52,962 bases of DNA. Source: a virus (lineage: Duplodnaviria > Caudoviricetes). How positions within the stretch are numbered: the first letter of the stretch is position 1; each line of letters begins with the position of its first letter. Both the position numbers and the translations under genes were made by a program. Where the stretch lies: the IMG/VR virus record IMGVR_UViG_3300030380_000587, positions 1 to 52,962 of that record. The stretch is one strand, 5' to 3'. Positions 1 to 50,027 of the stretch are shown here, piece after piece. The notes under the pieces are model-generated. The model searched no databases. It was given only the letters and a program-made list of their open reading frames with translations, and was not told where the DNA came from.

Positions 1-93
1 ATTCTTCTAAATCAAAAGTAATTGGTGCTTGATAGATACACTCAATGTATCTTGGTTTGTCGCTATCTACGTTCATAATGTTTAAACCTCCTC
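1..93. repeat. Copy 1 of left flank, repeated at 52661-52753
   Basis: 1-77 is identical to 52661-52737, with one mismatch at 78/52738, then identity through 93/52753. Contains the 5' end of the 85-aa gene seen complete at 52479-52736. Confidence 0.95.
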
Positions 94-303
94 CCTTATT
101 ACTCTATATTTTGCTATTGGTGTTGTTGCATTTGTTTCTCTCCACCCTTCATGGTTAGTAAAGGTCGGATAAAAAGCCACATATTGTCTACCAGATTTCT
201 CATCTGTCCAGAAATTTACATCTACATTTACACCTTCTTCTAGCTCTAAATCAGTCCAGTTATCTTCTTGCCATCTGAAATCCATATACTCATTTATGTC
301 CAT
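82..303 (-). CDS. Small acidic early protein (cassette allele A), unknown function
   Basis: 73-aa ORF with GGAGG SD; ends EEV-stop inside the repeat. Confidence 0.85.
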   Translation of the reverse strand: MDINEYMDFRWQEDNWTDLELEEGVNVDVNFWTDEKSGRQYVAFYPTFTNHEGWRETNATTPIAKYRVIREEV

Positions 304-377
304 AACGTTTAAACCTCCCCTTCTAAATCTTTTATTAATTCTTCTGCATCATCTTCATCATAAGACTTTTGCTCTAT
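297..377. repeat. Copy 1 of right flank, repeated at 52882-52962
   Basis: 81-bp exact match to the last 81 bases of the window. Confidence 0.95.
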
Positions 378-533
378 TAAATATTCTTTAAGTTCTTCTC
401 TTGTGTTGGGCAAACTATCTTCATAATAATCTGCAACCAAATCAGCTATCCAATCTTTAGCATTATAATCGTTTACATCATCCCATGCCCAAATTTCTGC
501 TAGATTTCTTTTTATAAGTAATATTTTATCCAT
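309..533 (-). CDS. Small acidic early protein, unknown function
   Basis: 74-aa D/E-rich ORF with SD; ends GEV-stop in the repeat. Confidence 0.85.
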   Translation of the reverse strand: MDKILLIKRNLAEIWAWDDVNDYNAKDWIADLVADYYEDSLPNTREELKEYLIEQKSYDEDDAEELIKDLEGEV

Positions 534-538
534 AACGT

Positions 539-772
539 TTAAACCTCCTCATCTTCTGGATATTGTTCTTCATAGCTTTTGAATCTTATGACCTTTGCCT
601 CGTGTATTTCTTCGTGCCACCCCTCAAAATAGTCCTCGTTTCTATTGGCTATGTGTTGGTTCTCATCAGAGAAAGCATATCGCTTTGCCTGAGTCTCGCT
701 GTCTGCATCTACTTCTATTGTTGCGAAGTAGTGCCTTTCTATTTCTATTAAATATGTTCCTTCTTTACTCAT
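539..772 (-). CDS. Small acidic early protein, unknown function
   Basis: 77-aa ORF with SD; 'IEVDADSETQA' pattern is common in small phage proteins; ends EEV-stop. Confidence 0.85.
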   Translation of the reverse strand: MSKEGTYLIEIERHYFATIEVDADSETQAKRYAFSDENQHIANRNEDYFEGWHEEIHEAKVIRFKSYEEQYPEDEEV

Positions 773-795
773 AGTGTTTAAACCTCCTTAAGTTT

Positions 796-981
796 TTAAC
801 TTCTATATATCTTAACATTCATTCTTCTAAAGTTCAACCCCAAGCCCTGCCTATCTGTATAAATATTATACTTAGTAATTGAATCTCTTGCGTAAGTCTT
901 CACTCTAAATTTAAAGCCTAAGATATTGATATGCCTAAACTTTTTCTTCGGTGTGAAAGTATCTCTGTATATTTTAATCAT
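796..981 (-). CDS. Small basic early protein, unknown function
   Basis: 61-aa K/R-rich ORF preceded by the GGAGGTTTAAAC repeat. Confidence 0.8.
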   Translation of the reverse strand: MIKIYRDTFTPKKKFRHINILGFKFRVKTYARDSITKYNIYTDRQGLGLNFRRMNVKIYRS

Positions 982-1002
982 AACGTTTAAACCTCCTTTA
1001 GT

Positions 1003-1146
1003 TTATATAATTGTTATCGCAATAATAACTAATACTATTGCTATTGGTTTTAATATATACCAATTTATTCTAAATATCAAGCTATCATCTGCCTGTCTTT
1101 TAAAATCCTGTTGAAAAATTGTCCACTCTTTTTTTAATTTATTCAT
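1003..1146 (-). CDS. 47-aa putative membrane protein (not in ORF track)
   Basis: Hand translation MNKLKKEWTIFQQDFKRQADDSLIFRINWYILKPIAIVLVIIAITII; SD repeat upstream; hydrophobic C-terminus. Confidence 0.75.
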   Translation of the reverse strand: MNKLKKEWTIFQQDFKRQADDSLIFRINWYILKPIAIVLVIIAITII

Positions 1147-1162
1147 CATGTTTAAACCTCCT

Positions 1163-1426
1163 CTAGTTGTTTAAGTCTGTTAATATATATTCACCACTCT
1201 GAATCTTTTTCCTTGTGTCGGCTATGCCCTCATTTAGAAATTGATTTCTGTATTTTCCTGTAGTCGTTGAATAATCCCAAAAATATTCATCAAGATATAT
1301 TTTACCTTGTGATTTCTTAGCAATTATACTTCTATAACTTTGGAAATATTCCTCGCCTTTATCATTTATAATAAACTGGTTCGCCACTTTATTACCTCTT
1401 GCACTTGTCATATTTTGTACACGCAT
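1163..1426 (-). CDS. Conserved phage early protein, unknown function
   Basis: 87 aa; FQSY...WDYSTTTGKYRNQFL pattern recurs in phage early proteins; SD repeat upstream. Confidence 0.8.
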   Translation of the reverse strand: MRVQNMTSARGNKVANQFIINDKGEEYFQSYRSIIAKKSQGKIYLDEYFWDYSTTTGKYRNQFLNEGIADTRKKIQSGEYILTDLNN

Positions 1427-1636
1427 TGTTTAAACCTCCTTTGATATTTGTAATTAATTAAACAATATGAACACCTTATAAAATTATTAATCACATTGCA
1501 AGTGTTTTAATCAAATTATTTTAAATTTATTTTAATTAAATTGCTTGTGTTCTCTGTCAATTTGTGCTAGTGATTTTTTTAACTAACATTTTTACAAATA
1601 AAATGCAATAGTTTTTTTAAGTTTATTTAACTAAAT

Positions 1637-1656
1637 TACTGTATAAATATACAACG
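1637..1656. promoter_or_regulatory. Possible LexA (SOS) box
   Basis: TACTGTATAAATATACAAC = CTGT-N8-ACAA, one mismatch from CTGT-N8-ACAG, in the intergenic region upstream of the early array. Confidence 0.35.
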
Positions 1657-1800
1657 TTTTAAATGCTCTCTATTGAACGTTTAGCAAGTAGTTAAGGGCA
1701 TAACATCAGATAGACAAACAAGCCCTTAAAACGGCTCTAATTAGCTTGAATGATTAAGGGGTAAAGTTTAAACGCTTTGCAAGTGTGAGAAATTCAAGAC

Positions 1801-1832
1801 AAAAAAAAGCCCCAATTAAGGGGCTAATTTTT
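1801..1832 (-). terminator. Rho-independent terminator after the SprT-like gene
   Basis: Minus strand AGCCCC-TTAATT-GGGGCT followed by a T run. Confidence 0.85.
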
Positions 1833-1841
1833 AGAGAGAGT

Positions 1842-2444
1842 TTAAACAATCTCTAGGGTATCACTTCCGCAACCATTACAAATTGTGTTAGTCATTCTGG
1901 CTATCATGGTCTTTGATGCTCTCCAACCAAACCCACAAGATGAACACTCCATTTTTATATTTCTGGTGCTTTGTTTCTTCTTGTTAGCTGTTGAAACTTC
2001 CGCATGGGGATAGTCTCCCAACTCTGAAACAATTTGCTCTAGTTTCTTTTTTAGTTCATCTCCAGCAACTGTTGCAGTCATTTTCCCAGTTAAGCCAATC
2101 TTAACCGCCATATCTTTAAATGGTTTTTTATGCCCATTCTTGCAGTCATCAACAGCGTGAATCATCTCATGGCTTAAAACGTCAAGAGCTTGAATAGAAT
2201 CACTAACAACGGGGCTAATGAATATTTCATTTACTCCAGCTTCTGAGCTGTTGCGATTATGACATACGCCTATTGCTTGATTTTTTGAGCCACTTCTTCC
2301 GCCACTTGCGGGAAATCCACAACTCACTTTTATATCTGTTGGAACTTCAATATCTACTGGTTCAAATACTTGTTTTACAAGCTTTGCCATTCCATCAACA
2401 AGCCACTCTTCACGGGTTCTAGTTTTATTTTCTAATAGTTTCAT
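1842..2444 (-). CDS. SprT-like zinc metalloprotease with C-terminal zinc ribbon
   Basis: HEMIH (HExxH) followed by GH..PF; C-terminal CSSC...CNGC. Start placed at 2444 because of the GGAG SD at 2454-2457 (ORF track start is 2477). Confidence 0.75.
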   Translation of the reverse strand: MKLLENKTRTREEWLVDGMAKLVKQVFEPVDIEVPTDIKVSCGFPASGGRSGSKNQAIGVCHNRNSSEAGVNEIFISPVVSDSIQALDVLSHEMIHAVDDCKNGHKKPFKDMAVKIGLTGKMTATVAGDELKKKLEQIVSELGDYPHAEVSTANKKKQSTRNIKMECSSCGFGWRASKTMIARMTNTICNGCGSDTLEIV

Positions 2445-2593
2445 GTTTATATACTCCTTTTGATTATTGTTAAACATAAGAGTATTTTAACCCGAAAAGC
2501 AGTTTAAACACAACCCCCAAAATGAAAAAACTTTAATTTATTTTTAGGGGTGGTTTTACCACGCTTTGCAAGTTGAAAAGTTTGAAATATAAA

Positions 2594-2697
2594 CTGTATA
2601 AATTTTGTACAACTTGCCAAACGCATTAACTAGCTTTGCAAGTTTTAGAAACTGTACAATTTTTGTACAGCTTTACAACTGTATAAATTTTGTACAG
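2594..2697. repeat. Three 19-bp imperfect palindromes CTGTAYAAWTTTTGTACAR
   Basis: Copies at 2594-2612, 2652-2670 and 2679-2697, interspersed with GCTTTGCAAGT repeats (~2563, 2633, 2727; also ~1774). Confidence 0.85.
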
Positions 2698-2976
2698 CTT
2701 GAAAAGTAGCCCGTAAATCTTGCCACGCTTTGCAAGTGTATCAAGTTTAAACGTTGTAGCTATAAGCTTTGAGGGGTAGGCAGAGTGCCATAGGGGGTGG
2801 GTGGCATATATACTAAATCTCATACATTTCTAGCCAGTTTTAGACGTTAACCAGATGACCGCCTAACCGTCAAACCACTTTCCAATCGTGCAAAGATTCA
2901 TATATTTTTTGACAAGCTTGTAAAGTAGTTTTATGGGGTATTATACTGGTATGTAACGGGGGGTATCGTTACACTC

Positions 2977-3005
2977 ATTATACATCTCAGAACACCTTTT
3001 GTCAA
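2977..3005 (-). promoter_or_regulatory. sigma70 promoter, leftward
   Basis: TTGACA-17 nt-TATAAT on the minus strand. Confidence 0.85.
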
Positions 3006-3042
3006 GTACTATCGAAATTATTTTTAAATATGCAGATAATGC

Positions 3043-3071
3043 TTGACAAACTGGTAAATGGCGTATATAAT
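3043..3071 (+). promoter_or_regulatory. sigma70 promoter, rightward (packaging/structural arm)
   Basis: TTGACA(3043)-17 nt-TATAAT(3066). Confidence 0.85.
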
Positions 3072-3078
3072 AATAGGC

Positions 3079-3507
3079 ATGTCTTACTTACCGGAAAAGA
3101 AAAGAAACTTGACGGAGAAGCAACAATCTTTTTTAGATAACCTCGTGGAAACACGGGGCGATTTTAAAAAGTCCGCAGAACTTGCAGGATACTCAGGTAA
3201 TCACTATCAAATCTTGAAATCACTTAAACATGAAGTAGTAGATTTAGCCTCAGACGTACTTGCTAGGGAAGCACCTACTGCTGCCTTTAAGTTAATTGAA
3301 GTACTTAATTCAGATAGACCTGTGCCACAAGCTAACTATAAGTTACAAGCTGCACAAACTATACTGGATAGAGCTGGTGTTGTTAAGACAGATAAGGTTC
3401 AAGTAGACCATAATGTTAGTGGAGGTATATTTATATTACCAGAAAAACAAACTGTGGAGTTGAAACAGACTTCTGACGGTGTGTACGAAGATATAGTTGA
3501 GGAATAA
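3079..3507 (+). CDS. Terminase small subunit-like protein
   Basis: LTEKQQSFL...SAELAGYS N-terminal HTH pattern and AAQTILDRAG; first gene of the packaging arm. ATG 3058 lies inside the promoter, so 3079 is preferred. Confidence 0.65.
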   Translation: MSYLPEKKRNLTEKQQSFLDNLVETRGDFKKSAELAGYSGNHYQILKSLKHEVVDLASDVLAREAPTAAFKLIEVLNSDRPVPQANYKLQAAQTILDRAGVVKTDKVQVDHNVSGGIFILPEKQTVELKQTSDGVYEDIVEE

Positions 3508-4442: not shown

Positions 4443-4862
4443 ATGGCTTACTCACAAAAAGTAATTGACAGGTTTGAGAGTGTACTCAATGAACCTGAAA
4501 AACACTCAGTAGGTAGGTTTAATCCCCAAGACCCTAATGTTGCTACTGGTATGACAGGAGCACCTGCATGTGGTGATGTAATGCGATTACAGTTAAAGTT
4601 AAACGGAGACATCATAGAAGATGTTAAGTTTAAAACTTATGGCTGTGGTTCTGCTATTGCATCAAGTACTATGTTTGTAGATATGCTGAAAGGTAAAACT
4701 ATAGACGAAGCAAAACAAATAAAAGATAAAGATATTGCCGAAGCTTTAGAACTTCCTCCTATCAAACTACATTGTAGTGTGTTAGCAGAGGAAAGTATTT
4801 GTAAAGCTATAGAAAATTGGGAAGAAAAAGTCGCACATCGACAACATAATTATTATGGGTAG
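4443..4862 (+). CDS. iscU: Fe-S cluster scaffold protein IscU
   Basis: GAPACGD, FKTYGCGSAIASS and LPPIKLHC: three conserved Cys and an HscA-binding LPPVK-like motif. Confidence 0.95.
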   Translation: MAYSQKVIDRFESVLNEPEKHSVGRFNPQDPNVATGMTGAPACGDVMRLQLKLNGDIIEDVKFKTYGCGSAIASSTMFVDMLKGKTIDEAKQIKDKDIAEALELPPIKLHCSVLAEESICKAIENWEEKVAHRQHNYYG

Positions 4863-34515: not shown

Positions 34516-34865
34516 TGGACGAATTTATAAATGTAATAAACCAAGTAGGTTTTCCAATCGCAGCAGCGTTAGGACTTGGATGGTTTATATGGAAGTTAAT
34601 AAATAGAATTATAGATGGCATGGAAGCCAAACTTGATACTTTAGATGATAAGGTACAAGCAAGTTTAGATACAATGGAAGAGAGAGTAACCACTAAACTT
34701 GACAGTCAATATGGCATCATAGTTAGTTTAATTGATAGAGTAAGAGCAATGGATAATCAAAGTATTAGACAGGATGTTCTACTTAAAACTTTACTAGGCG
34801 TACCAAACTTAGTAGAGATAGATAAGATTGCAAAGGCAGACAGAGATGACCAAAGAAAAGATTGA
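34515..34865 (+). CDS. Membrane-anchored coiled-coil protein
   Basis: 116 aa; INQVGFPI TM helix; overlaps csgF. Confidence 0.7.
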   Translation: MDEFINVINQVGFPIAAALGLGWFIWKLINRIIDGMEAKLDTLDDKVQASLDTMEERVTTKLDSQYGIIVSLIDRVRAMDNQSIRQDVLLKTLLGVPNLVEIDKIAKADRDDQRKD

Positions 34866-35355
34866 AAATATACATCCAATGACACAAATTACTATTGCTT
34901 CGATAGTACAAGTTTGTGTACTAGGATTAATGGGTTTGTCTATGTTTTTTATTAACATAGCTTTTGCAGATGAAATGGTTCATAAGTTTAAGAACCCATC
35001 CTTTAGTGGAGAAAATACTAGCTCTCATTATCTTACTATTGAGAACCAAGAGTTTAATCGTAAGATGACAATCAAAGAAGAAATCAAAGCTTTACAAGAG
35101 CAAATCAAAAGAGACAAGGAAAACACAACACTCGCAAGATTTATTAGAAATCTAGAGTCACGGATTTACGCACAACTATCAAGGCAATTAGTAGAAAATT
35201 TATTTGGGGAGAACCCTAGTACAGAAGGTACTATAGAACTTGAAGGAAATACCATTTCTTATATAAGCGATGGAGAAATAATAACACTTACAATTACGGA
35301 TGCAGATGGAAATGTTACGATTATTCAGTTGCCTATTGGTAGTTTTACTTTCTAG
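34828..35355 (+). CDS. csgF: Curli assembly protein CsgF-like
   Basis: Signal peptide ending AFA, then DEMVHKFKNPSFSG (CsgF N-terminal F.NP.F.G); exact start uncertain. Confidence 0.8.
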   Translation: MQRQTEMTKEKIENIHPMTQITIASIVQVCVLGLMGLSMFFINIAFADEMVHKFKNPSFSGENTSSHYLTIENQEFNRKMTIKEEIKALQEQIKRDKENTTLARFIRNLESRIYAQLSRQLVENLFGENPSTEGTIELEGNTISYISDGEIITLTITDADGNVTIIQLPIGSFTF

Positions 35356-36106
35356 TGGTTGTGCAGTTATAAGTCAGAATAATGATTTAGTATTAACAAA
35401 AAAGATACAAGCTCCAACAACACTAACATTACAATCAGAAGAATTACTAAACTTACCGGCAGCAAAAGTACAGCCTACAATAGCGATATACCCTAATAGT
35501 TTTAAAGATTTAACAGGGCAACGAAGAAGCAATAGTTCGTTTGCTTTATTCAGTACTGCAATAACACAAGCACCTGAAGCGTTTTTAATTAGAGCATTAA
35601 AGCATACATCAGGTGGTAACTTTTTTAGAGTTGTAGAACGTGTAGGTTTAGATGACCTTACCAAAGAAAGACAACTCATACGTACAACTCGTAAAGAGTT
35701 TGAAGAAGATAATAAATTAAAGCCCTTGTTATTTGCAGGGCTACTGGTTCAGGGCGGTGTCGTTTCTTATGAAGCGAACCAAAGGTCTGGAGGATTGGGT
35801 GCTCGTTACTTAGGAATAGGTAACAGTAAACAATACCGAGAAGATAATGTAACTATATCATTGCGATTAGTTTCAGTATCCACAGGTGAAGTACTAATAG
35901 AAACTTTAGTGACTAAAAGTATTTTATCTACAAGCATATCTCAGGATGTTTTTCGTTTTATTGAACAACAAACAGAGTTAGTAGAAATAGAAGGAGGCGT
36001 GGCTGAGAATGAATCTGTATCTATAGCTTTACAAAAGGCAATAGAGACAGGAGTTTTAAATATAATAAATATAGGAATAGAGAGAGGCTATTGGGAATAT
36101 GAATAA
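35312..36106 (+). CDS. csgG: Curli secretion pore lipoprotein CsgG
   Basis: Lipobox LSSGC; FKDLTGQ, FSTAITQ, FRVVERVGLDDLTKERQLIR, GARYLGIG, LRLVSVSTGEV. Confidence 0.92.
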   Translation: MLRLFSCLLVVLLSSGCAVISQNNDLVLTKKIQAPTTLTLQSEELLNLPAAKVQPTIAIYPNSFKDLTGQRRSNSSFALFSTAITQAPEAFLIRALKHTSGGNFFRVVERVGLDDLTKERQLIRTTRKEFEEDNKLKPLLFAGLLVQGGVVSYEANQRSGGLGARYLGIGNSKQYREDNVTISLRLVSVSTGEVLIETLVTKSILSTSISQDVFRFIEQQTELVEIEGGVAENESVSIALQKAIETGVLNIINIGIERGYWEYE

Positions 36107-36809
36107 AATAATATTAAGTTTAGTAGCTATAATATCTTTAGGTATTTATGCTGCAGATAATGAAATATATGTTGAGCAATCTGGTGCGACAGCAAATCTT
36201 GATTTAGAGCAACTCGGTTCTGCTAATATTATTGGAGGTTTGAATTCCGTAGCCGGTACATTAACACCTCTTGACTTAGACGGAACAGGAATGACATTAG
36301 ACATCAATCAAATTGGTGACACTAATAAATTCTTAGGAGATATTCTAGCTGATAGTTTGACAGGTTTCTTTGAGTTTGATGGAGATAGTAATAGCTTTAC
36401 AATTCAAGTAGACCCGACAAATACTTATGGAGCAGATAGTTCTAATTTAAATGTTGATGTTACTGGAAGCACTAACACCTTTACACTTGACTTGGCAACG
36501 AGTTCAATGGCTAGTAATACTGACCTTGATTGGATAATCAATGGTTCAGGAAACCAACTAGACTTTGATATAGATTATGATGGTGGCACAAGTTATGTAG
36601 ATATTGATGGTGATAGTAATACAGTTAGTTTTGATGGACAAGGATATGCTGGTGGTTATTTTTACTTAGACCAGACAGGAGGTTCTAGAACATTCAACAT
36701 ACAACAACAGAGTACACTAGATAATGACTGGCTTAAAATACTTAGTACTGGTTCTAACGGTACTGTTTGTGTCATCCAAAACGATGGCGGAACAGCAGTC
36801 GGTTGCTGA
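36099..36809 (+). CDS. Curlin-like secreted repeat protein
   Basis: Signal peptide; N/D/G/S/T-rich ~23-aa repeats such as EQLGSAN, NQIGDTN, FDGDSN, VTGSTN, INGSGN, IDGDSN; directly after csgG. Confidence 0.7.
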   Translation: MNKIILSLVAIISLGIYAADNEIYVEQSGATANLDLEQLGSANIIGGLNSVAGTLTPLDLDGTGMTLDINQIGDTNKFLGDILADSLTGFFEFDGDSNSFTIQVDPTNTYGADSSNLNVDVTGSTNTFTLDLATSSMASNTDLDWIINGSGNQLDFDIDYDGGTSYVDIDGDSNTVSFDGQGYAGGYFYLDQTGGSRTFNIQQQSTLDNDWLKILSTGSNGTVCVIQNDGGTAVGC

Positions 36810-37833
36810 GATAGGCAGCATTACAGAGCTTGAAGGTTTTGGCAGAGTTGTAAGAGACGATACTTACAAAGCTGCACTAGCCTTCGATATAAACAGTTAC
36901 GATAATGTCCAAACTTCCAATGGGAGAGTGGGCATTACGTTTCTGGATGATAGTCAAGTAAGATTGACTGAACATTCTGAACTCATTATTGATGAGTTTA
37001 TATATGACCCTGACCCATCTAAATCTAAGATGGCTCTACAGTTTGCGAGTGGTACTGCAAGATTTATCACAGGAAAACTCGCAACTATAGATAAACAAAA
37101 CATATTTATAAAAACTCCAAGTGCTACGATAGGTATTCGTGGTACTGATTTTACTGTGACTGTTGACGAATTAGGTCGTTCTTTAGTCATATTATTACCT
37201 GACGATGACGGTCTACCTAGTGGAGAGATTGTCGTTGCAACAGCTATGGGAGAGGTTGTACTTAATAAACCTTACCAAGCTACTACAGTTTCTATATTTG
37301 AAGCTGAACCCACTAAGCCAGTTATCCTTGACTTAACACTTGAGTTAATTGATAACATGTTGATTGTAAGCAAACCAAGGGAGAATAAAGTTGCCACAGG
37401 ACAAGACGGAGATAGTAGTACAAGTAATGTTCTTGATATTGATTATCTTGATTTTGACGATTTAGAACAAGACTATTTAGCAGGAGATGAATTAGAATTT
37501 ACAGAGCTAGATATAAATTATTTAGATGTAAATTTTTTAGAAGACCTACTAAATATAATTGAAGATATAAACGAATTAGATACAACTAATACACTATTAA
37601 AAACAGATATAGATTTAAAAGGTACAGCATTTGGGTTTGACCAAGAAACTCAAATCAATACTTTTACAACAGATAATCTCATAACTTTTTACAAAACGTT
37701 AGAAGATACTGTTAGGTTAGATTTAGATAAGAGTGGTTCATATACTGTCATACTAATACAGAATGGTAAGAGCACTCAGATTGTGGTGAATGGTGGAGGA
37801 AGCTCTACCATAACGATAACTCAAGGAGATTAA
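36724..37833 (+). CDS. FecR-domain periplasmic protein
   Basis: Signal peptide; D.VQT..G...ITF.D.S.V.L..HS.L.ID and IKTPSATIGIRGTDF; acidic C-terminal half. Confidence 0.85.
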   Translation: MTGLKYLVLVLTVLFVSSKTMAEQQSVAEIGSITELEGFGRVVRDDTYKAALAFDINSYDNVQTSNGRVGITFLDDSQVRLTEHSELIIDEFIYDPDPSKSKMALQFASGTARFITGKLATIDKQNIFIKTPSATIGIRGTDFTVTVDELGRSLVILLPDDDGLPSGEIVVATAMGEVVLNKPYQATTVSIFEAEPTKPVILDLTLELIDNMLIVSKPRENKVATGQDGDSSTSNVLDIDYLDFDDLEQDYLAGDELEFTELDINYLDVNFLEDLLNIIEDINELDTTNTLLKTDIDLKGTAFGFDQETQINTFTTDNLITFYKTLEDTVRLDLDKSGSYTVILIQNGKSTQIVVNGGGSSTITITQGD

Positions 37834-37834
37834 T

Positions 37835-39568
37835 ATGAAGTGGTCTTTACCTTTACTTGGACTTTTAATTGTACCTTTACTTTTTAACTCTGTACCTTTA
37901 GAGATACTTAGATTAAAAACATTTGATACTTTTGTAGAAACTCCAGAACCATCTGGACATTTTACAATTTTAAATATTACTGAAGAAGACGTACAAGAAA
38001 GAGGTGGCTATCCTTTTCCTAGACAAGACTTAGCAGAGATACAACGACAACTAATTAACGAAGGTGCATTAGGAGTGGGTTGGGTTATTCTATTTCCACA
38101 GCCAGATAGGTTTGGTGGAGATGAAATCTTTTCACAGATGCTAAGTTATGTTCCTAGTGTACTAGCAATGCCAGAGTTTGAGAATAATATTTATCCTGAA
38201 ACACATGGTACTGTTATCCTTGGACCAGATGTAGACTTACCAAAAGCTACAGGGTTTTTAGAAAATGTACCTATACTAAAACAATCAGCAGCTCAAGGAG
38301 TAGTGTCGGCAAGAGTTGATGTAGATAATCTTGTCAGACGATTACCTTTACTACAGCAAACTCCAGATGGTTGGGTTGCTGCCTTTGGTACTCAAGTACT
38401 AAAGTCATTAGTAGGTGGTGACACTTATCAAATTAAGACTAACGAGAATGGTATTGAGATGATAAGAGTCAAAGGATTACCTCCGGTAAGCACAGATAGT
38501 CTTGGGAGAAAATGGATTAGTTGGGTTGATACACCACAAACTACCTTAAAAGAAATGGATGTTGCAGGTAAGTTTGTATTCATAGGTGTAACTGCGAAAG
38601 GAGTTATGCCACAGTTAGCAACTCCAAACGGATTGTTAGAGCCTCATAAGATACAGGCTGCACTTGCAGAAAGTATTTTGATTGACTCTCCTTCCATACC
38701 TGACTACAGATTATTTGTTGAACTATTTATATTATGCATTTCCGGATTACTAATCGCCTTTATTATAAGTTACTTTGGTATAACGTGGGGATTACTTTTA
38801 GCTGGTATGGTAATGTCATCAGTTGCTGGTTTAGGTTATTATTTTGTATCTCTAGGTTATTTAGTTGATGTAACTTGGAGTTTGATAAGTATGACACTTA
38901 TCGCAACTCAACAGTTCTATCTAAACTTTAGGACACAGTTTAAACTTCGTCAACAAATTAAGAAACAATTTGAGCATTATCTTGACCCAGCTCAAGTCAA
39001 ACGATTACAAAACAATCCAGAGCTTTTAAAGTTAGGTGGTGAAAGAAGACGATGTACATTTTTATTTACAGATGTTAGAGGCTTTACAAGTTTGTCAGAG
39101 AAGTTAGAGCCTGAAGAAGTTACAGAGATTATGAACAAGGCTCTTACCATACAAGCCAATGCAGTTAAAAAGTATGGTGGAATGGTAGATAAATATATTG
39201 GTGATGCGATGATGGCTATCTTTAATGCTCCTATGGATTTAGATAGACATGAACATCAAGCTATATTAGCAGCGTTAGAAATAAAAACTAAAATGAAAGA
39301 ATCAGATTTAGATATTGATATAGGTATTGGTGTGAATACGGGTGAAGCTGTCATAGGTAATATGGGAAGTGATACTCGTTTTGATTATACAGCTATAGGT
39401 GATGCGGTAAACTTAGCAGCTCGTTTAGAATCTAGCTGTAAGGAAGTAGGTAAAGATTTAGTTATAGGTGAAGAGACAATTAAATATTATCATGGAACTA
39501 TGTATCAAAAGTTAGATTCTATCCGTGTTAAAGGTAAAGAAAAACCTATAAAAATTTATACAATATGA
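37835..39568 (+). CDS. CHASE2-domain class III adenylate cyclase
   Basis: GGYPFPR, FPQPDR, DVDNLVRR, TPNG (CHASE2); 3 TM helices; FTDVRGFT, DKYIGDAMMA, FDYTAIGDAVNLAARLE. Confidence 0.92.
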   Translation: MKWSLPLLGLLIVPLLFNSVPLEILRLKTFDTFVETPEPSGHFTILNITEEDVQERGGYPFPRQDLAEIQRQLINEGALGVGWVILFPQPDRFGGDEIFSQMLSYVPSVLAMPEFENNIYPETHGTVILGPDVDLPKATGFLENVPILKQSAAQGVVSARVDVDNLVRRLPLLQQTPDGWVAAFGTQVLKSLVGGDTYQIKTNENGIEMIRVKGLPPVSTDSLGRKWISWVDTPQTTLKEMDVAGKFVFIGVTAKGVMPQLATPNGLLEPHKIQAALAESILIDSPSIPDYRLFVELFILCISGLLIAFIISYFGITWGLLLAGMVMSSVAGLGYYFVSLGYLVDVTWSLISMTLIATQQFYLNFRTQFKLRQQIKKQFEHYLDPAQVKRLQNNPELLKLGGERRRCTFLFTDVRGFTSLSEKLEPEEVTEIMNKALTIQANAVKKYGGMVDKYIGDAMMAIFNAPMDLDRHEHQAILAALEIKTKMKESDLDIDIGIGVNTGEAVIGNMGSDTRFDYTAIGDAVNLAARLESSCKEVGKDLVIGEETIKYYHGTMYQKLDSIRVKGKEKPIKIYTI

Positions 39569-39604: not shown

Positions 39605-39662
39605 GAAGAGTGTGCGAAAGGTTCGGCACTCATAAACTTGCTTTATATAAGGAGTTAATATG
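39605..39662 (+). promoter_or_regulatory. ROSE-like RNA thermometer
   Basis: First hairpin GAGTG...CACTC, then AACTTGCTT pairing with AAGGAGTT (SD) with a bulged G; upstream of a small heat shock gene. Confidence 0.7.
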
Positions 39663-40073
39663 ACAAACATAAAAGCATTTGGACAATTCAGTCCGTTCTC
39701 AGTCGGGTTTGATGACATCTTTAATACATTACAAAGAGCATCAATACCTAATACAAACTATCCACCTTACAATATTCTTAAAAAAGGTGAATCATATTTT
39801 ATTGAAATGGCAATGGCAGGGTTTAAACGTTCTGACATTGATATTGAAGTAAAAGATAATACATTAACTATCTCTGCAGACTACGAAAAGAGAGAGGATG
39901 ATATAGAATTTATTCATAAAGGAATTTCTGAACGAGAGTTCTATAAAAAATTTGCTCTAGCTGAATACGTAGAAGTAAAGAAAGCTCAGATGATTGATGG
40001 TGTCTTGGTTATTCAACTGGAAAAAGACATACCAGAGGAACAAAAGCCAAAAAAAATCAAAGTTTCTAGCTAA
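39660..40073 (+). CDS. Small heat shock protein (Hsp20, IbpA-like)
   Basis: VGFD, NYPPYNI, IEMAMAGF, HKGISER.F...F.L, DGVLVI.L. Confidence 0.95.
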   Translation: MTNIKAFGQFSPFSVGFDDIFNTLQRASIPNTNYPPYNILKKGESYFIEMAMAGFKRSDIDIEVKDNTLTISADYEKREDDIEFIHKGISEREFYKKFALAEYVEVKKAQMIDGVLVIQLEKDIPEEQKPKKIKVSS

Positions 40074-40194: not shown

Positions 40195-40410
40195 TCACAA
40201 AGCCTCAGTTTCACGTTCTAAATATCGATGAAGTGGTTCGAGTCTTTCTTTTGCTCTACGAAGTAAAGTTTTGACTAGAACTCTGTCGTATTCTGGAAAA
40301 CATTCATCTACTTTTTCTACTGGCAACTCTGATATTTCTGTTACTATCTTGTTATCTTTTGTTAATAATAGTTTGAAACTAATAAGATTAGCTTCCTGCT
40401 TCTTACTCAT
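40195..40410 (-). CDS. Hypothetical protein
   Basis: 71 aa overlapping the nrdB stop. Confidence 0.75.
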   Translation of the reverse strand: MSKKQEANLISFKLLLTKDNKIVTEISELPVEKVDECFPEYDRVLVKTLLRRAKERLEPLHRYLERETEAL

Positions 40411-41386
40411 TTACTGTCCTTAAATTTGCAAAGTTAATTAAGTCTTGTTTTCCTCTGAGTCCAGCCTTCATGTAAGTAGTAGCTCTACCTTCAAAGAAGT
40501 TCTGATGCTCAACACCCATCACTTCATCTATCCAACCAAGAGGATTTTCTCTTTGGTCATAATTAGTTTTTAATCCTAGCTGTAGTAATCTTCTATCAGC
40601 TATGTATCTATTATATGCATACATATCTTTCTTGGTCAATCCTTGTAAGTCTCCCATCTCAAATACTAAATCAAGAAACTTATCTTCCAGCGTTACCATC
40701 TCTCTACATATTTCATACAACTCTTTTTTAAAATCATCTGTCCATATGTCAATGTTCTCTTGTATGAACTCTCTAAATAATTTAGTCATGGCTTCAACAT
40801 GCATTGACTCATCACGAATAGAGTAAGTTACAATCTGTCCCATACCTTTCATCTTTCCGAATCTTGGAAAGTTTAACAAGATTGCAAAGCTACTAAATAA
40901 TTGTAGTCCTTCTGTAAATGCAGAATAAACTGCTAATGTTTTTGCAATAGTTCTCTTATCATTCTTACGTGGTTTAAACGTTCCCACATAGTCATGCTTG
41001 TCTGCCATCTCTTCATACTCTGAGAATGCTTTATATTCTAACTCAGGCATTCCAACTGTGTCAAGTAATAAACTGTAGGCATCTTGATGGATTGATTCCA
41101 TGTTAGCAAAAGAACTCATCATCATTCTTGCTTCTGGTTTTTTAAAGATGGGCATATATTTATCTATATATCCACTCGCTACATCGACATCTGACTGAGT
41201 AAATAATCTAAAGATTTGAGTCAATAGATTTTTTTCTGTTGGTGAAATGTCCTGCCAATCTTTTACATCTGTATGTAATGGTACAGATTCTGGCATCCAA
41301 TGCATTTGATTTTGTAGTTTGTAGTAATCGTACATCCACGGATACTCAAACGGTTTATAGTAATCTCTTGTTGATAGTAAGCTCAT
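40403..41386 (-). CDS. nrdB: Ribonucleotide reductase class I beta subunit
   Basis: FTQSD, MESIHQDAY, FTEG, IRDESMH diiron ligands and radical Tyr; NFFE...Y tail. Confidence 0.95.
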   Translation of the reverse strand: MSLLSTRDYYKPFEYPWMYDYYKLQNQMHWMPESVPLHTDVKDWQDISPTEKNLLTQIFRLFTQSDVDVASGYIDKYMPIFKKPEARMMMSSFANMESIHQDAYSLLLDTVGMPELEYKAFSEYEEMADKHDYVGTFKPRKNDKRTIAKTLAVYSAFTEGLQLFSSFAILLNFPRFGKMKGMGQIVTYSIRDESMHVEAMTKLFREFIQENIDIWTDDFKKELYEICREMVTLEDKFLDLVFEMGDLQGLTKKDMYAYNRYIADRRLLQLGLKTNYDQRENPLGWIDEVMGVEHQNFFEGRATTYMKAGLRGKQDLINFANLRTVNE

Positions 41387-41395
41387 TAGTTCTCC

Positions 41396-43291
41396 TTAAC
41401 CTTCACAGGCAATACATCCCTCATCATCTAATTTAATACGAGGAATTTTTATGTTAACATTCTCTACGTTTCTAGCTGCATTAGACCTAAAGTAATATAG
41501 CGATTTAAGTTTATGCATTCCATACCAATGAACATCATTTACATACTGCATATATTCATCATGTACTTCTTGGCTATCCGTAGTCTTAGGTAGTGTAAAA
41601 AATAAATTTACACTTTGACTTTGACAAATAAATTCTTGTCTCATATGTGCATGTTCGACAATCCATATTTGATTTATTTCATTTGCGGTTTTGAATAGTT
41701 CTTTTTCTTTCTCATCTAGTATCTCTAGCTGTTGAACTGAACCATCATTACCTGATATATCTTTCCAAACTTCTTCAAGTTCTTTACCTTTCAATCCTTT
41801 AGACTTTAAAAGTTTATCTAAGTATTTGTTCTTAACTTGGTAAGTACCTGACAAAGTTTTGTGCGTATATGCATTAGCCCTATAAGGCTCAATACTAGGG
41901 GAAGTCCCACTACAAATAATACCGGAAGAAGCGTTAGGAGCAATAGCAAGTAGATTAGCATTTCTAAGCCCTGAACCATGTATATCAGGAGCTTCACCCC
42001 TTTCTTCTGCCAAGTATTGAGAAGCTTTTGTCGCTTCTCTTTTGATGTGACTAAAGGCTTTATGATTAAAGCCAGTTGCGAATATACCTTCAAAAGGTAT
42101 TCCTTTAGATTGAAGATAAGCGTGGAAGCCCATTGCCCCAAGACCAAGAGACCTTTCCCTATACGCTGAGTAAGCTGACTTGGTATAACCTTCCTTATCT
42201 TCTTTAATATATTTTGAAAAACGTTTGAAGTTTGCACTATATTCTCCGAGTTGTGATGTGTCTACAGCATTATCAATATAATGTTGTAAGACGTTATCGA
42301 GCATTGTAATTAAATCATTAATGAACTCATCATTCTTTGACCACTTATCAAAGTGTTCTAAGTTGACAGAAGATAAACAACAAACTGCTGTACGTTCTTC
42401 GTTAGTAGGTAAGGTAATCTCTGAACATAAATTACTTTGCCTTATGTTTAGTCCTAAATCTTTCTGTGATTTTGGTAAAGCTTCGTTACACGTATCAATG
42501 TTAATCATGTATGGCTCACCTGTTTCAGCTCTAGCAAAAAGTATTTGCCACCATAAGTCTCTAGCATTGACCGTCTTAACAGCTTCGTTAGTCTTAGGGT
42601 CTATCAGTCTCCAGTCTTCATCGTTCTCTACAGCTTCTAAGAATGCATTGGTAATGTTTATTCCATTGTGAAGGTTTAAACACTTCCTATTAATATCACC
42701 ACCTGACTCTCTTCTAATATTTATAAACTCTTCAATCTCTGGATGGCTAATGTCCATGTATGCTGCATAACTTCCACGTCTTGTAGTGCCTTGATTAAAG
42801 GCTAACATCTGTGAATCTACGACATGCATAAAGGGGATTGACCCAGTAGAACGAGAACCGTGAGTAGTAGAAATACCATTACTACGCACATCTCCCCAAT
42901 ATCCACCGATGCCTCCACCCGAACTTGCCAACCAAATGTTCTCATCGTAATGAGCAGATAAACCAACCCTGCTGTCAGGAACATAATTAAGGAAGCAACT
43001 GATAGGAAGCCCACGAGTTGTACCTCCGTTGCTAAGTATAGGAGTACTGAACATAAACCAACAATCGGAGCTGTAGTTATAAAGTCTCTGAGCCAATTCA
43101 TAATCTGTTTCTCCTTTATATGTTGCTGCAAATACTGAAGCTCTAGCAAAAGCTTCTTGAGCATGGGTTTCATTATCCCAAAAGTATCTGTCTTTGAGTG
43201 TATCTAAACTAAACTTATCAAACTTTTTTTCTTTATCATAATCTATACATATACCGAGGTAAGGTTTCTTGCCTATCTTATCTTCCATCAT
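41396..43291 (-). CDS. nrdA: Ribonucleotide reductase class I alpha subunit (no ATP cone)
   Basis: STP.LSN, PISCF, SNLCSEI, VCCLSS, APNASS, SLYY, C-terminal CIAC. Confidence 0.95.
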   Translation of the reverse strand: MMEDKIGKKPYLGICIDYDKEKKFDKFSLDTLKDRYFWDNETHAQEAFARASVFAATYKGETDYELAQRLYNYSSDCWFMFSTPILSNGGTTRGLPISCFLNYVPDSRVGLSAHYDENIWLASSGGGIGGYWGDVRSNGISTTHGSRSTGSIPFMHVVDSQMLAFNQGTTRRGSYAAYMDISHPEIEEFINIRRESGGDINRKCLNLHNGINITNAFLEAVENDEDWRLIDPKTNEAVKTVNARDLWWQILFARAETGEPYMINIDTCNEALPKSQKDLGLNIRQSNLCSEITLPTNEERTAVCCLSSVNLEHFDKWSKNDEFINDLITMLDNVLQHYIDNAVDTSQLGEYSANFKRFSKYIKEDKEGYTKSAYSAYRERSLGLGAMGFHAYLQSKGIPFEGIFATGFNHKAFSHIKREATKASQYLAEERGEAPDIHGSGLRNANLLAIAPNASSGIICSGTSPSIEPYRANAYTHKTLSGTYQVKNKYLDKLLKSKGLKGKELEEVWKDISGNDGSVQQLEILDEKEKELFKTANEINQIWIVEHAHMRQEFICQSQSVNLFFTLPKTTDSQEVHDEYMQYVNDVHWYGMHKLKSLYYFRSNAARNVENVNIKIPRIKLDDEGCIACEG

Positions 43292-43565
43292 CTTGTTTTC
43301 CTGTTAAATATAAGGCTATTATAGCATAGTGAATAATCTTTAGCAAGTCATTTGGATTCTTACCATTCTTCTTTCCATACCTCATAGCGTATTTCATAAT
43401 GTTACCAATACAGAAACCTTCACCGTGTCCAGCATCAAGTATCATATCTGTCGCTTGATATTTACCTCTAGCATAATGTTCAGTATATGTTGAATCAATA
43501 TGAGATTTAATTGTTTCTAAAATTTTATCCTCTGTAAATTTGTAATCTCTTTTCTTCATACCCAT
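43278..43565 (-). CDS. DUF3310-like (gp1.7-like) protein
   Basis: HY...GFCIGNIMKY..R.GKK....DL.K...Y pattern. Confidence 0.65.
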   Translation of the reverse strand: MGMKKRDYKFTEDKILETIKSHIDSTYTEHYARGKYQATDMILDAGHGEGFCIGNIMKYAMRYGKKNGKNPNDLLKIIHYAIIALYLTGKQDDGR

Positions 43566-43978
43566 TCCTCTGGTAAGTTATCTTCTCCATACCATGTAAA
43601 GTTATTTGTCTCTGCCCATTCTGCATGAGTTCTTTTTGTACCATCTTTTCTTTTCTTAGCTTGTGGCATAGGTGAGTAAGGTTTCTGAAATAAAAATACT
43701 AACTCATAATTTTTAGGTAATGCCTCTCGTATATGTATGTACTTACTATACTCTGCATAGTCCCAAAATCTACCTTTAGCTTCTAACAAAATTGTTTTAC
43801 CATTGAACTCTTTAACAAAGTCTGGTTCGTATCTATGCTTCACTACATAGTCAATCATCTCACTATGATGCTGCCATTTACTTAAAACATTTTCGTGTAA
43901 GCTAACCTCCCACAAACTATCATAGCCTTTAGGTACGTTAATCTTTTTAGGTCTTGGCTTTCTTGGTTTTCTAGCCAC
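43556..43978 (-). CDS. T7 endonuclease I-like Holliday junction resolvase
   Basis: YDS.WE, YEPDF, LEAKG.F, T.AEWAE..F motifs. Confidence 0.85.
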   Translation of the reverse strand: MARKPRKPRPKKINVPKGYDSLWEVSLHENVLSKWQHHSEMIDYVVKHRYEPDFVKEFNGKTILLEAKGRFWDYAEYSKYIHIREALPKNYELVFLFQKPYSPMPQAKKRKDGTKRTHAEWAETNNFTWYGEDNLPEEWV

Positions 43979-44222
43979 GTAATAATTCCTCTAATGTAAT
44001 ATCAGGATTACGTTTTATTTTTTTATTAAACCATCGTAAGCTATAAGCACTTAATAAAATTCTACCCATACCATAGACGTGTGTTTGCTCTGGTAAAAAC
44101 TCATGTAAGTTTTTTTTGTTAATCTTAGAAGTGTCTTCACTATCAGGGGTCATAGTTCTCAACCATTCAATTAACATGTTCTCTGCTTTACGTCTTAATC
44201 TTTTAGCTTTCTTGCCATTCAT
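43971..44222 (-). CDS. Hypothetical protein
   Basis: 83 aa, MNGKKAKRLRR N-terminus. Confidence 0.7.
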   Translation of the reverse strand: MNGKKAKRLRRKAENMLIEWLRTMTPDSEDTSKINKKNLHEFLPEQTHVYGMGRILLSAYSLRWFNKKIKRNPDITLEELLRG

Positions 44223-45024
44223 AATTCTTTACCAGTTGCCAATACTTTAATATACTGTTGAACATATCTCTATGTTTCTCGTGGGATTCTTTATCCCATA
44301 TATGACATAAGACTAAGCTTGTATCCTCTCTATCTACAAAGATAGAAACCCTCTCTGGATTATCTATATTGCATCCTTGAGCATACGCAGATAGTTGCAT
44401 ACCGTGGTCATCATAAACTAATTTAGCAGGTTCTTTACCATCTAAGTTGTCTTTAGTTTTAAAGTCAACGAATATACCTGACTTAGAATATAAGTCTATC
44501 TTACCACCATATCCTTGTTTTGCACAGAAGGAATCTTCTGCTATCCACTCTTCATCTGGAAAGTTTTCATCCAACCATGATTGAATTATTTCGTAAGGCT
44601 TAGACGTACCTAGCCCTAAGAAACCTTGTTCAATCTTAGCATGAATCTCTGTACCTTTCTTCGCTGCGTTTAAACCTATCTCTTTAGAATGTTGTTTACA
44701 TCTGAAAGCAAACCCCTCTAAGGATTCGTCATCTTGCTTTTCTAAAGTAAGTGCAGAGTTTAAGGCTTGATTTATTTTCCAGTTTTCTAAGGATGGTTTA
44801 GCTACCATACCTAGAATCGTAGTGACTGAAGGTACTAATCCTAGAGACCTAGCATCTCGTAGATTGGTATTTCTTTCTTTACCATTAGCACCTATGATTG
44901 TGTACATAGGTTCTCCATCTTTGGAGTACCAATGACCAGCTTCCGATTTATATTTAGAAGCTGCTAGTTTATTATATACTTCCTGAGAAGAACTGTCAAT
45001 AGTTTTTTTATTTTTCTTTGTCAT
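44203..45024 (-). CDS. PD-(D/E)xK exonuclease
   Basis: PSVTTIL, GTEIH, GKID, VDFKT, QLSAY motifs. Confidence 0.85.
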   Translation of the reverse strand: MTKKNKKTIDSSSQEVYNKLAASKYKSEAGHWYSKDGEPMYTIIGANGKERNTNLRDARSLGLVPSVTTILGMVAKPSLENWKINQALNSALTLEKQDDESLEGFAFRCKQHSKEIGLNAAKKGTEIHAKIEQGFLGLGTSKPYEIIQSWLDENFPDEEWIAEDSFCAKQGYGGKIDLYSKSGIFVDFKTKDNLDGKEPAKLVYDDHGMQLSAYAQGCNIDNPERVSIFVDREDTSLVLCHIWDKESHEKHRDMFNSILKYWQLVKNYEWQES

Positions 45025-47147: not shown

Positions 47148-47149
47148 AA

Positions 47150-48811: not shown

Positions 48812-48828
48812 GTTAGCCCTCCGACTGT

Positions 48829-49095: not shown

Positions 49096-49097
49096 AA

Positions 49098-50020: not shown

Positions 50021-50027
50021 GTCAGGC

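Follow-up and report, generated by a model that had tools for sequence, protein, structure and literature searches.

The window analysed here, 52,962 bases with a GC content of 35%, is the entire IMG/VR virus record IMGVR_UViG_3300030380_000587. Close to its start lies an array of small early genes, each preceded by the same 12-bp linker, GGAGGTTTAAAC, within which a Shine-Dalgarno (SD) sequence adjoins an 8-bp palindrome, GTTTAAAC. This report concerns the linker, the exchange of whole genes at its copies, and the wider distribution of the palindrome, which accompanies a gene for a predicted Spartan/SprT-like protease in the window and in unrelated phages.

The TerL protein of the window is 65.6%, 65.0% and 64.8% identical to those of Pelagibacter phages HTVC115P, HTVC103P and HTVC104P, respectively, and 48.8% identical to that of Puniceispirillum phage HMO-2011. 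Its portal, capsid, family A polymerase (PolA), primase-helicase and ribonucleotide reductase have tblastn matches in the HMO-2011-type phages HTVC115P, HTVC103P and HMO-2011. Judged by these similar and syntenic terminase, portal, capsid and replication genes, the phage is an HMO-2011-type podovirus. Its plus-strand genes (3058-40073) are mainly structural and late; its minus-strand genes (40195-52962, running on into 1-2477) are early and replicative.

The linker array and its surroundings

The first gene of the leftward unit, at 1842-2477 on the minus strand, encodes a predicted Spartan/SprT-like zinc metalloprotease with the motif HEMIH and a C-terminal zinc ribbon. A leader of about 490 nt lies between this gene and a pair of back-to-back promoter-like sites (2977-3071), one facing leftward (2977-3005, minus strand) and the other, divergent from it, rightward (3043-3071, plus strand); both match the consensus TTGACA-17-TATAAT at 12/12 positions. 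On the 3′ side of the protease gene, a terminator-like hairpin with a T run (1808-1825, minus strand) is flanked by GTTTAAAC at 1766 and 1840. It stands before the array, near which the only promoter match is a weaker one (9/12, at 1483-1510).

All array genes lie on the minus strand. The first of them, P1 (1163-1426), is conserved and encodes a basic protein of 87 aa; at the DNA level, this gene shares 70-77% identity with counterparts in 14 cultured Pelagibacter phages. P2 (1003-1149; 48 aa, with a hydrophobic tail) follows, and then P3 (796-981; 61 aa, pI 10.9), which is 98-100% identical in 11 metagenome contigs and served as the anchor for comparing arrays. Beyond P3 lies a variable zone, occupied in the window by cassettes X1 (539-772; 77 aa, pI 4.5), X3 (309-533; 74 aa, pI 4.1) and X4 (82-303; 73 aa, pI 4.3), the last of which alternates in one slot with X5 (52753-52888; 45-48 aa, pI 4.1). 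The proteins of the variable cassettes are all small and acidic, with pI values of 4.1-4.5. Gene C (52479-52736; 85 aa) forms the conserved right border of the zone, and its first 25 codons are read again in an open frame at 2-76. None of the cassette proteins could be named in Pfam and PHROG scans; only P1 had a match, to the unnamed phrog_21575.

The 12-mer GGAGGTTTAAAC occurs in nine exact copies, every one on the minus strand, against an expectation of 0.01 (the mean of 100 dinucleotide-preserving shuffles, none of which reached nine). Copies 1 (1428-1439), 2 (1150-1161) and 3 (985-996) precede P1, P2 and P3, and copy 4 (776-787), the left border of the variable zone, precedes cassette X1. 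Copies 5 (537-548), 6 (307-318) and 7 (80-91) stand before X3, X4 and gene C, and include the Val-stop of X1, X3 and X4, respectively. The last two are copies 6 and 7 re-read in a wrap-around overlap: one at 52892-52903, before X5, and one at 52740-52751, ahead of gene C, which includes the Val-stop of X5. An ATG follows each copy, after 3 nt in seven of the nine, after 1 nt at 1428 and directly at 1150, and GGAGG lies 7-10 nt from the start codon. The GTT TAA within the linker provides the Val-stop of four upstream genes (539-772, 309-533, 82-303 and 52753-52888). This role covers five of the nine copies, the end of 309-533 being read twice. The sequence shared by linkers extends over 12-22 nt, in which the 8-bp palindrome is the sole inverted repeat. 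Gaps between array genes measure 0-24 nt; no promoter-like site was called in them, and the linkers themselves, examined for a promoter or a hairpin, contain neither. From its sequence, the 12-mer reads as a composite linker, a strong SD (GGAGG) joined to one 8-bp palindromic site.

The initial annotation had described nine exact copies, one ahead of each small early gene, and had assigned the repeat a threefold role as SD, palindrome and stop of the upstream gene. Both points are confirmed, except that the number nine holds for the contig and not for the genome. The contig ends overlap, 1-93 matching 52661-52753 at 98.9% and 297-377 matching 52882-52962 at 100%, and between these overlaps the sequence differs: 94-296 carries X4 and 52754-52881 carries X5. 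The genome, of about 52.66 kb, is circular or circularly permuted; the assembler made one full turn of it and continued along a variant with another cassette. Since the ends overlap with one cassette swapped, the genome holds seven linkers, those at 52740 and 52892 being second readings of 80 and 307. The contig is probably complete, despite a CheckV completeness estimate of 68% and its IMG/VR class of linear.

Exchange of cassettes between relatives and within populations

An IMG/VR scan for the repeat followed by NNNATG returned 68 stretches, five of which have 3-5 matches to the pattern; by the 12-mer alone, six loci of the same GC content carry 2-6 copies. A metagenome scan with P3 returned 63 loci, whose plus-strand ORFs were clustered so that each array could be written as a string of clusters. 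We compared 13 records in which P3 is 98-100% identical, namely the window, L063 and L140-L150 (L142 is the contig of L053, and L143 that of L016).

These 13 records hold 10 array configurations. The window reads P1-P2-P3-X1-X3-X4-C at its start and ...X1-X3-X5(-C), as does L148, at its end. P3 is followed by X2-X4-C in L140, by X2-X5-C in L142, by X2-X6-C in L143 and L145, by X3-c22-c71 in L144 and L149, and by c72-X1-X4-C in L147. L141 reads P2-c52-c22-P3-X2-X1-C, the X2-X1-C part of which is also found in L063, and two further configurations (L146, L150) lack P2. The same cassette can therefore be found in different places: X1 comes after P3 in the window, after X2 in L141 and L063, and in yet another position in L147, and X5 comes after X3, X2 or P3, depending on the record.

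The borders of exchanged DNA coincide with the linker. In pairwise blastn comparisons, collinear blocks of 92-100% identity begin or end 0-25 nt from a linker, and the X1 block common to the window and L063 begins 2 nt ahead of one linker and ends 17 nt inside the following one. In L156, a cassette has been carried, along with its upstream linker, into a lineage that otherwise uses plain SDs. On a larger scale, the window and G003, a relative with 87% identity, agree at 94% over 761-2018, where the stretch from P3 up to the protease gene's end lies, and at 83-91% over the remaining genome. This conserved head of the array may have been exchanged recently. Relatives near gene C were also inspected for other repeated linkers, and only iteron-like tandem repeats were seen (L119-L121). 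In L120 (1905-2215) and L121 (2876-3060), arrays of an 11-nt word with periods of 25 and 17 bp lie upstream of gene C and look like iterons.

Variation is also present within single samples. Parts of 1-2500 are contained, as contigs, in 20 public runs, and the Logan contigs of four of these were compared; in run X8, stretches without contig cover carry no meaning. In all four, contigs break at every linker (1-77, 48-326, 297-549, 520-805, 776-2500), the pattern to which branching of an assembly graph would lead. The path through the X4 cassette has a depth of 24.1 in run X1, which is likely the source sample, and a 204-nt contig that joins 93 to 297 has a depth of 8.8, with flanks at 34-42. 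We infer that this contig carries cassette X5, given the fit of its length (46 + 128 + 30 nt). Both paths, that through X4 and the alternative, are also present in runs X5 (8.75 and 11.6) and X6 (6.1 and 5.3), which belong to other studies. In a 1150-nt contig of run X6, 536 is followed immediately by 776, and the two sides have 13 nt in common; cassette X1 has been precisely removed from between two linkers. Loose contig ends at 549 in runs X1 and X5 read into the same 536/776 junction. Within P1, a junction of 1198 with 1269 is present at high depth (35-65) in contigs from three runs; these contigs probably derive from other pelagiphages with P1 homologues.

In natural populations, entire cassettes are acquired, lost and swapped at junctions that lie at linkers, and different haplotypes co-exist in one water sample. 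We consider it very probable that the crossovers fall at the linkers. How they arise is a separate matter, for which a homology-driven mechanism is slightly favoured. The linkers would separate promoterless small genes within one leftward unit, and exchange would consist of short-homology events, by annealing or template switching, between the 12-22 nt that linkers share. The T7-type replication and recombination proteins of the phage would make the exchanges, either during co-infection or within one genome, and no site-specific recombinase would take part. Selection would then retain only those junctions in which stop, ribosome-binding site (RBS) and start are intact. Suitable proteins are encoded on the minus strand: a Gp2.5-like single-stranded DNA (ssDNA)-binding and annealing protein (49098-49517, phrog_112), which is a candidate for short-homology annealing, an exonuclease (44203-45024, phrog_298), an endonuclease (43556-43978, phrog_945), and a T7-type replisome (45417-48811) composed of a family A DNA polymerase (45417-47147) and a Toprim-DnaB primase-helicase (47150-48811). 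Among the window proteins scanned against Pfam and/or PHROGs (50 in number, not every plus-strand ORF included), no integrase, IntI, serine recombinase, invertase or transposase family was found.

Phage T7 deletes DNA between direct repeats of about this length, and studies on human mitochondrial DNA reportedly discuss short-repeat deletions made by the same type of replisome. The likeness extends to the machinery (Gp2.5-like ssDNA-binding protein, primase-helicase, family A polymerase, exonuclease) and to the repeat of about 12-13 nt at the joint. Unlike in T7-type deletions, the position of the repeats here keeps each product in frame and expressed, and genomes also exchange DNA with one another.

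The closest described case, by analogy, would be the modular shuffling mediated by promoter-early stem-loop (PeSL) elements in T4-type phages (Arbiol et al. 2010, PMC2839356; Comeau et al. 2014, PMC4122927). There, too, small and non-essential ORFan genes of a plastic region are separated by copies of a short regulatory motif, and recombination between the copies gives insertions, deletions and replacements between close relatives without a dedicated recombinase. Circular excision products (mini-circles) are reported there for T4-type phages. Insertions, deletions and replacements bounded by a repeated motif are what we find between close relatives here. As described there, though, the PeSL is a sigma-70 promoter with a terminator hairpin and acts in transcription, a combination that the linkers do not have; the linker here is 12 nt of SD, stop and palindrome, and would serve as a translational joint.

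The array also resembles an integron in that its small, apparently promoterless genes have one orientation, are delimited by a recurring site, are combinatorial in content and would be read from upstream. It differs in that no IntI integrase was found among the proteins scanned, and no attI, attC or imperfect inverted-repeat hairpin sites at the array, and in that the junctions fit homology, unlike the site-specific exchange of integrons. The array works like a set of integrase-free, apparently promoterless cassettes; it is not an integron, and is best filed under repeat-mediated modular shuffling.

It is also possible, though unlikely, that the repeat is simply a preferred and homogenised RBS context, and that illegitimate recombination followed by selection at gene borders places the breakpoints. 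The evidence here cuts both ways, and part of it weighs against our own reading. In 27 more distant relatives (L176-L202, P3 59-66% identical) there are 0-1 copies of GTTTAAAC and no common 12-mer, yet their arrays differ by whole genes at gene borders all the same. L181 and L180, for example, share P3 DNA at 100% identity, and still one of the two has an additional gene placed precisely at a gene border, where the homology blocks overlap by 8 nt. Other lineages, L187 among them, have a recurrent strong-SD context of their own, and short RBS homology occurs at joints in other lineages too. A comparison of rearrangement rates does not separate clades that have the 12-mer from those that lack it, since both kinds vary at P3 identities of 99-100%. 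Since relatives without the repeat also vary gene by gene, the repeat may only mark viable junctions. In addition, exchange is read here from contigs; no recombination event was seen directly, and contigs cannot show rates, duplications or circles. On the other side, joints in the window's clade carry a shared 12-13 nt, homology blocks end inside linkers, and a cassette and its upstream linker travel together into a plain-SD lineage, as in L156. Nor can an RBS preference explain selection on TTTAAAC at places that are not RBSs and in phages with GC contents of 0.32-0.63. Taken together, the comparisons suggest that gene-by-gene plasticity is a general property of this early region, and that the 12-mer is where the joints fall in this clade.

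The initial annotation had predicted that crossovers at the repeat would swap whole small genes, and this is borne out by the differences in cassettes and order between close relatives, with breakpoints at the repeat; gene content and order among them are far from fixed. It was also right that no dedicated recombinase is evident and that an exonuclease and an ssDNA-binding protein, the latter Gp2.5-like and annealing, are at hand. Its picture of an integron-like, integrase-free array holds as regards the absence of an integrase among the proteins scanned, and fails as regards mechanism, in that neither IntI (among those proteins) nor attC was found and nothing points to site-specific recombination. 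Its concern that relatives might lack the TTTAAAC part was justified, in that such relatives exist, but a preferred RBS context alone does not account for TTTAAAC elsewhere. A causal role of the repeat in the plasticity is not supported, given that relatives without its TTTAAAC part vary gene by gene too.

The palindrome and the protease gene

The palindrome is not confined to the linkers. GTTTAAAC occurs at 31 sites in the window, against 1.76 +/- 1.43 expected, and is the most frequent 8-mer of the genome. Of these sites, 27 lie in the minus-strand block of about 15.8 kb and only four in the plus-strand block of 37 kb. The 27 comprise the nine linkers, three overlaps with stop codons, one site before a start codon, three intergenic sites and 11 intragenic ones. 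Four of them surround the protease gene (1766-2752): that at 1840 overlaps its stop codon, and those at 1766, 2502 and 2745 are intergenic. The other 14 non-linker sites are spread over 40972-52437, with 11 inside genes, two on stop codons (48827, 51218) and one before a start codon (50597). The intragenic sites lie in the genes for ribonucleotide reductase, exonuclease, DNA polymerase and primase-helicase, and in others.

These sites are kept more often than their surroundings. In G003, 24 of 26 alignable sites are intact, including 10 of the 11 intragenic ones, compared with 6385 of 13967 background 8-mers (46%). At six intragenic sites that were checked, the word is absent in both HTVC115P and HTVC103P; the difference is synonymous at one site, comes with amino-acid differences at four, and falls in an insertion at the sixth. 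By this pattern of conservation, GTTTAAAC is under nucleotide-level selection in this lineage. It is not typical of HMO-2011-type phages in general, HTVC115P, HTVC103P and HMO-2011 having 1, 0 and 0 sites per 50 kb, respectively. The linker is thus one use of a motif that is selected across the early/middle region and in unrelated phages.

Next to the palindromes at 1766 and 2745 we noted the same 13-nt word (1774-1786 and 2727-2739), in opposite arrangement, and it also accompanies sites in the relative L016. This word could be a second regulatory element. The sequence UUUAAAC is a classic slippery heptamer, and a reading of the palindrome as a -1 frameshift signal was considered and dropped, as the intragenic sites fall in both open frames and the flanks are symmetric.

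Starting from the motif, we found two lineages outside the clade: G001 (52.8 kb with terminal repeats, GC 0.61), which has 32 sites, 19 of them in the first 10 kb, and G002 (a 25.6-kb fragment, GC 0.45), whose 13 sites are all within the first 4.8 kb. In both, the palindrome stands between SD and ATG, before an SD, on stop codons and in the loops of GC-rich hairpins. At 7305, 8153 and 8770 of G001 (L080), the loop that contains it is that of inverted repeats of 8-10 bp, rich in GC, whose arms resemble an SD and an anti-SD; one of these is directly 3′ of the protease gene. Among the 92 ORFs of the window, only 1842-2477 matches G001 by tblastn (36% over 215 aa). The same ORF matches G002 (36% over 175 aa), where the one other match covers 70 aa of a structural protein.

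A profile of seven homologues of ORF 1842-2477 then yielded 80 IMG/VR loci with 36-74% identity. At least four sites are present in 52 of these, three in 4, one or two in 6 and none in 18; the expected number in the loci with at least four is 0.06-0.65. Among the 63 loci of lower GC content, only seven have fewer than three sites. Where long flanks are available on both sides, most sites are downstream of the gene (one upstream and 17 downstream in L243; 2 and 18 in L211). In 18 of 23 homologue loci, GTTTAAAC lies 53-89 nt after the called start of the protease gene, and in seven of the 23 the stop codon is inside a site, as in the window. The loci gathered through P3 and gene C agree with this association: all 19 that carry the protease gene hold at least four sites, and 67 that lack it hold fewer. 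A further 20 without the gene have at least four sites; these loci are short, and most of them (those bearing P3) belong, by their arrays, to the same clades. Cultured phages are represented by Methylophilales phage Venkman (38.6 kb), in which 30 of 34 sites lie in the first 14.6 kb, where the non-structural genes are, by Dinoroseobacter phage R26L (40.5 kb, GC 0.63; 11 sites against 0.16 expected) and by E. coli phage Bas97 (5 against 0.35). GenBank contains 164 phage records with a homologue, mostly from phages of Arthrobacter, Microbacterium and Streptomyces, which we take to correspond to a group of high GC content that lacks the motif.

Some points speak against a tie between motif and gene. 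All 17 homologue loci with a GC content of at least 0.64 hold 0-1 sites, and the gene is also present without any site in L218 and L271. The 80 loci were gathered through the protease and are not phylogenetically independent, and the evidence obtained by starting from the motif consists of one scan, with two outside lineages (G001, G002) and the clade itself. No second protein family common to the enriched loci was found by tblastn (E <1e-4), a search that would miss a small, fast-evolving DNA-binding protein shared by these phages. A maximal-order Markov test on 16 homologue loci of high GC content singled out no other palindrome, and is uninformative, as the motif inflates its own sub-words and GTTTAAAC itself reaches a ratio of only 1.5.

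The protein encoded by 1842-2477 has an HExxH...H zinc site whose residues H103, E104, H107 and H116 are invariant in 36 homologue sequences. In the window, GTTTAAAC lies 24 nt before the first ATG of the gene, and its Val-stop falls inside another copy. The protein matches the unnamed phrog_6361 at E 1.6e-40. It resembles Spartan (SPRTN) and SprT in the zinc site, in the zinc-binding module that follows the protease domain, and in fold: an AF2 model (pLDDT 90.5) has human Spartan, 6mdw and 6mdx, as its top Foldseek matches, with probabilities of 0.99 and 0.95 and E values of 1.5e-3 and 6.1e-3. It departs from them in that TM-scores reach only 0.27-0.33, and the match to Pfam SprT-like (PF10263; E 1.2e-5), at 25.5 bits, is 0.1 bit below the gathering cut-off of 25.6, which counts against the assignment. 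Searched against PDB, the family profile reaches Spartan only at E 0.32. Predicted as two copies, the protein forms a symmetric homodimer with an interface that includes the invariant residues R22 and E23; the score is 0.69, compared with 0.00 for the best of three controls, no fewer than 66% of contacts recur between runs, and pLDDT does not fall below 79. Among proteins of known structure, 20 of 30 solved as pairs reached this mark, as did one of 23 solved as single chains. The prediction supports pairing of the protein as a symmetric dimer; the model is silent on DNA binding. To our knowledge, neither a link to an exact DNA word nor a symmetric dimer is a feature of Spartan.

Zincin-type proteases that are expressed early from mobile elements are also known in the ArdC anti-restriction proteins of plasmids, which the phage protein resembles in these respects. 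The N-terminal ssDNA-binding domain of ArdC was not among the Pfam matches of ORF 1842-2477 (E up to 1), and one homologue, in a Bordetella phage, is annotated 'antirestriction protein'. A phage SprT-like protein is described as toxic to Mycobacterium smegmatis, causing filaments (PMC7474061), and SprT-like copies in jumbo phages are suggested to target host proteins (PMC7824862).

The flanks of the palindrome point to how it may be read. In 235 sites from loci with a GC content of at least 0.40, counted without symmetrisation, position -1 is C or T in 96% and position +1 is A or G in 95% (both in 216 of 235), and position -5 is A or G in 94% (A in 71%) and position +5 is C or T in 83% (both in 185). 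In diverse phages the site can thus be written as an 18-bp consensus with two-fold symmetry, R-N3-Y-GTTTAAAC-R-N3-Y. The exact word is found 490 times, against 53 for its commonest single-mismatch variant, so that variants are about 10-fold rarer. In the window linkers, the flank rule holds towards the start codon, where R stands at +1 and the T of ATG at +5. It is broken towards the SD, where the copies fused to an SD have G at -1, which counts against this description.

A consensus of two-fold symmetry speaks for a site in duplex DNA, recognised by a symmetric dimer, and against a signal in RNA. On these sequence grounds the palindrome is probably a protein-binding DNA site, and the protease itself is the best, if tentative, candidate for the binder. 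A phage-encoded symmetric protein would bind the site many times over the non-structural region, and the bound sites would form a global operator set or an address for a DNA-dependent protease. Partly similar arrangements are known: HIP1 of cyanobacteria is a highly iterated palindrome, and IncP plasmids have global operators, the KorA and KorB sites. Like HIP1, GTTTAAAC is an exact 8-bp palindrome, far over-represented within and between genes and specific to lineages; as with the IncP operators, many copies of one symmetric site extend across a functional block. It differs from both in that the word is another one, is found in phages of many hosts (GC 0.32-0.63) and is tied to a protease gene. 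It is not tied to a methyltransferase, ParB or a helix-turn-helix regulator, and no methyltransferase was found among the window proteins scanned.

The best overall explanation, to which we assign a probability of roughly 0.6, is that of a composite linker at which cassettes would be exchanged through short homology, with a palindrome that would be a DNA site read by a dimer. One may go further and regard the 18-bp palindrome and the Spartan-like protease as a two-part system that moves among unrelated phages, though we consider this joint reading doubtful. Its carriers would be podoviruses, siphoviruses and temperate phages of alpha-, beta- and gammaproteobacterial hosts. After acquisition of the gene, exact sites would accumulate in the non-structural region, even at the cost of amino-acid changes, and the dimeric protein would be addressed to them, either as an operator network or as a site-activated protease that would clear host proteins from incoming early DNA. 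The pelagiphage clade would then have fused the site to an SD, giving a universal joint for the integrase-free exchange of acidic cassettes.

Three further explanations were considered. The motif might instead act in RNA, as a processing, decay or translational-control signal of early/middle transcripts, which we regard as quite improbable. T4 RegB, for example, cleaves the SD regions of early mRNAs. The near-confinement of the sites to the early/middle block (27 of 31 in the window, and similarly in Venkman) and the nine sites between SD and AUG would suit such a role. Against it, the flanks are two-fold symmetric on both sides in unsymmetrised counts, which fits duplex DNA and a dimer, the sites cluster in untranslated promoter and terminator regions, and no Rfam family matches 1-3200 (E up to 0.1).

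We give still less credence to GTTTAAAC as the core site of a dedicated site-specific recombination or nicking system, that is, a true integron analogue whose enzyme, possibly the protease-zinc-ribbon protein or a partner, has gone unrecognised. A sharp, symmetric 18-bp consensus would be in line with this, as would the placing of sites at the bounds of cassettes and of the protease gene (2502 and 1840), with the stop codon overlapping the site in a share of the homologue loci given above. Yet no integrase, serine recombinase or transposase is among the proteins scanned, 11 sites lie inside essential genes and are conserved there, the predicted fold is that of a zinc protease and not of a nuclease or recombinase, and the SD-site-start context accounts for only 82 of 457 sites in diverse loci. 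Finally, although the window is a metagenome assembly, classed as linear with an estimated completeness of 68%, assembly error as the source of the contig-end swap and the variants has almost nothing to recommend it, given that both paths are present in contigs of three different studies, that alternative arrays occur in independent assemblies, and that cassette X5 stands in full context in L142 and L148.

Elsewhere in the window, the plus-strand region 34828-39568 is a block of cellular-type genes, which encode CsgF (34828-35355), CsgG (35300-36106), a FecR-domain protein (36724-37833) and a fusion of a CHASE2 sensor with an adenylate/guanylate cyclase (37835-39568). The block is kept in G003 and absent from HTVC115P, HTVC103P and HMO-2011; a study on a marine methylophage is said to discuss curli genes. 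Also on the plus strand of this podovirus genome are genes for a NifU/IscU-like iron-sulfur scaffold (4443-4862, E 5e-39) and for Hsp20 (39660-40073). A 163-aa protein encoded on the minus strand at 51667-52158 matches pyrimidine-dimer DNA glycosylase in Pfam (23.6 bits, cut-off 23) and phrog_624, 'DNA binding protein'.

Implications

The pairing of GTTTAAAC with the protease appears to be undescribed. Literature searches brought up cloning sites and passing mentions only; in none of the papers found is GTTTAAAC treated as a phage motif. The main texts of a paper on HMO-2011-type phages (PMC9038755) and of the paper on the isolation of Venkman (PMC8163748) mention neither SprT nor GTTTAAAC; the supplements of either may list the gene. 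An exact palindrome tied to one protease gene, over a GC range of 0.32-0.63, points to a new pair of cis-element and protein, and the cultured carriers Venkman, R26L and, more weakly, Bas97 make this pair directly testable.

Two explanations have long been offered for phage mosaicism: short 'linker' homologies, and random joints on which selection then acts as a filter. The linker described here is exact, at a length of only 12 nt, all of its products are in frame, and a single water sample allows several haplotypes to be counted. With countable haplotypes in an abundant marine phage group, the question of how mosaicism arises becomes quantifiable. As for the cassettes, the first-expressed end of a phage genome is the usual place to seek anti-defence genes, and it is at this end that the variable cassettes, with their small acidic proteins, are found.

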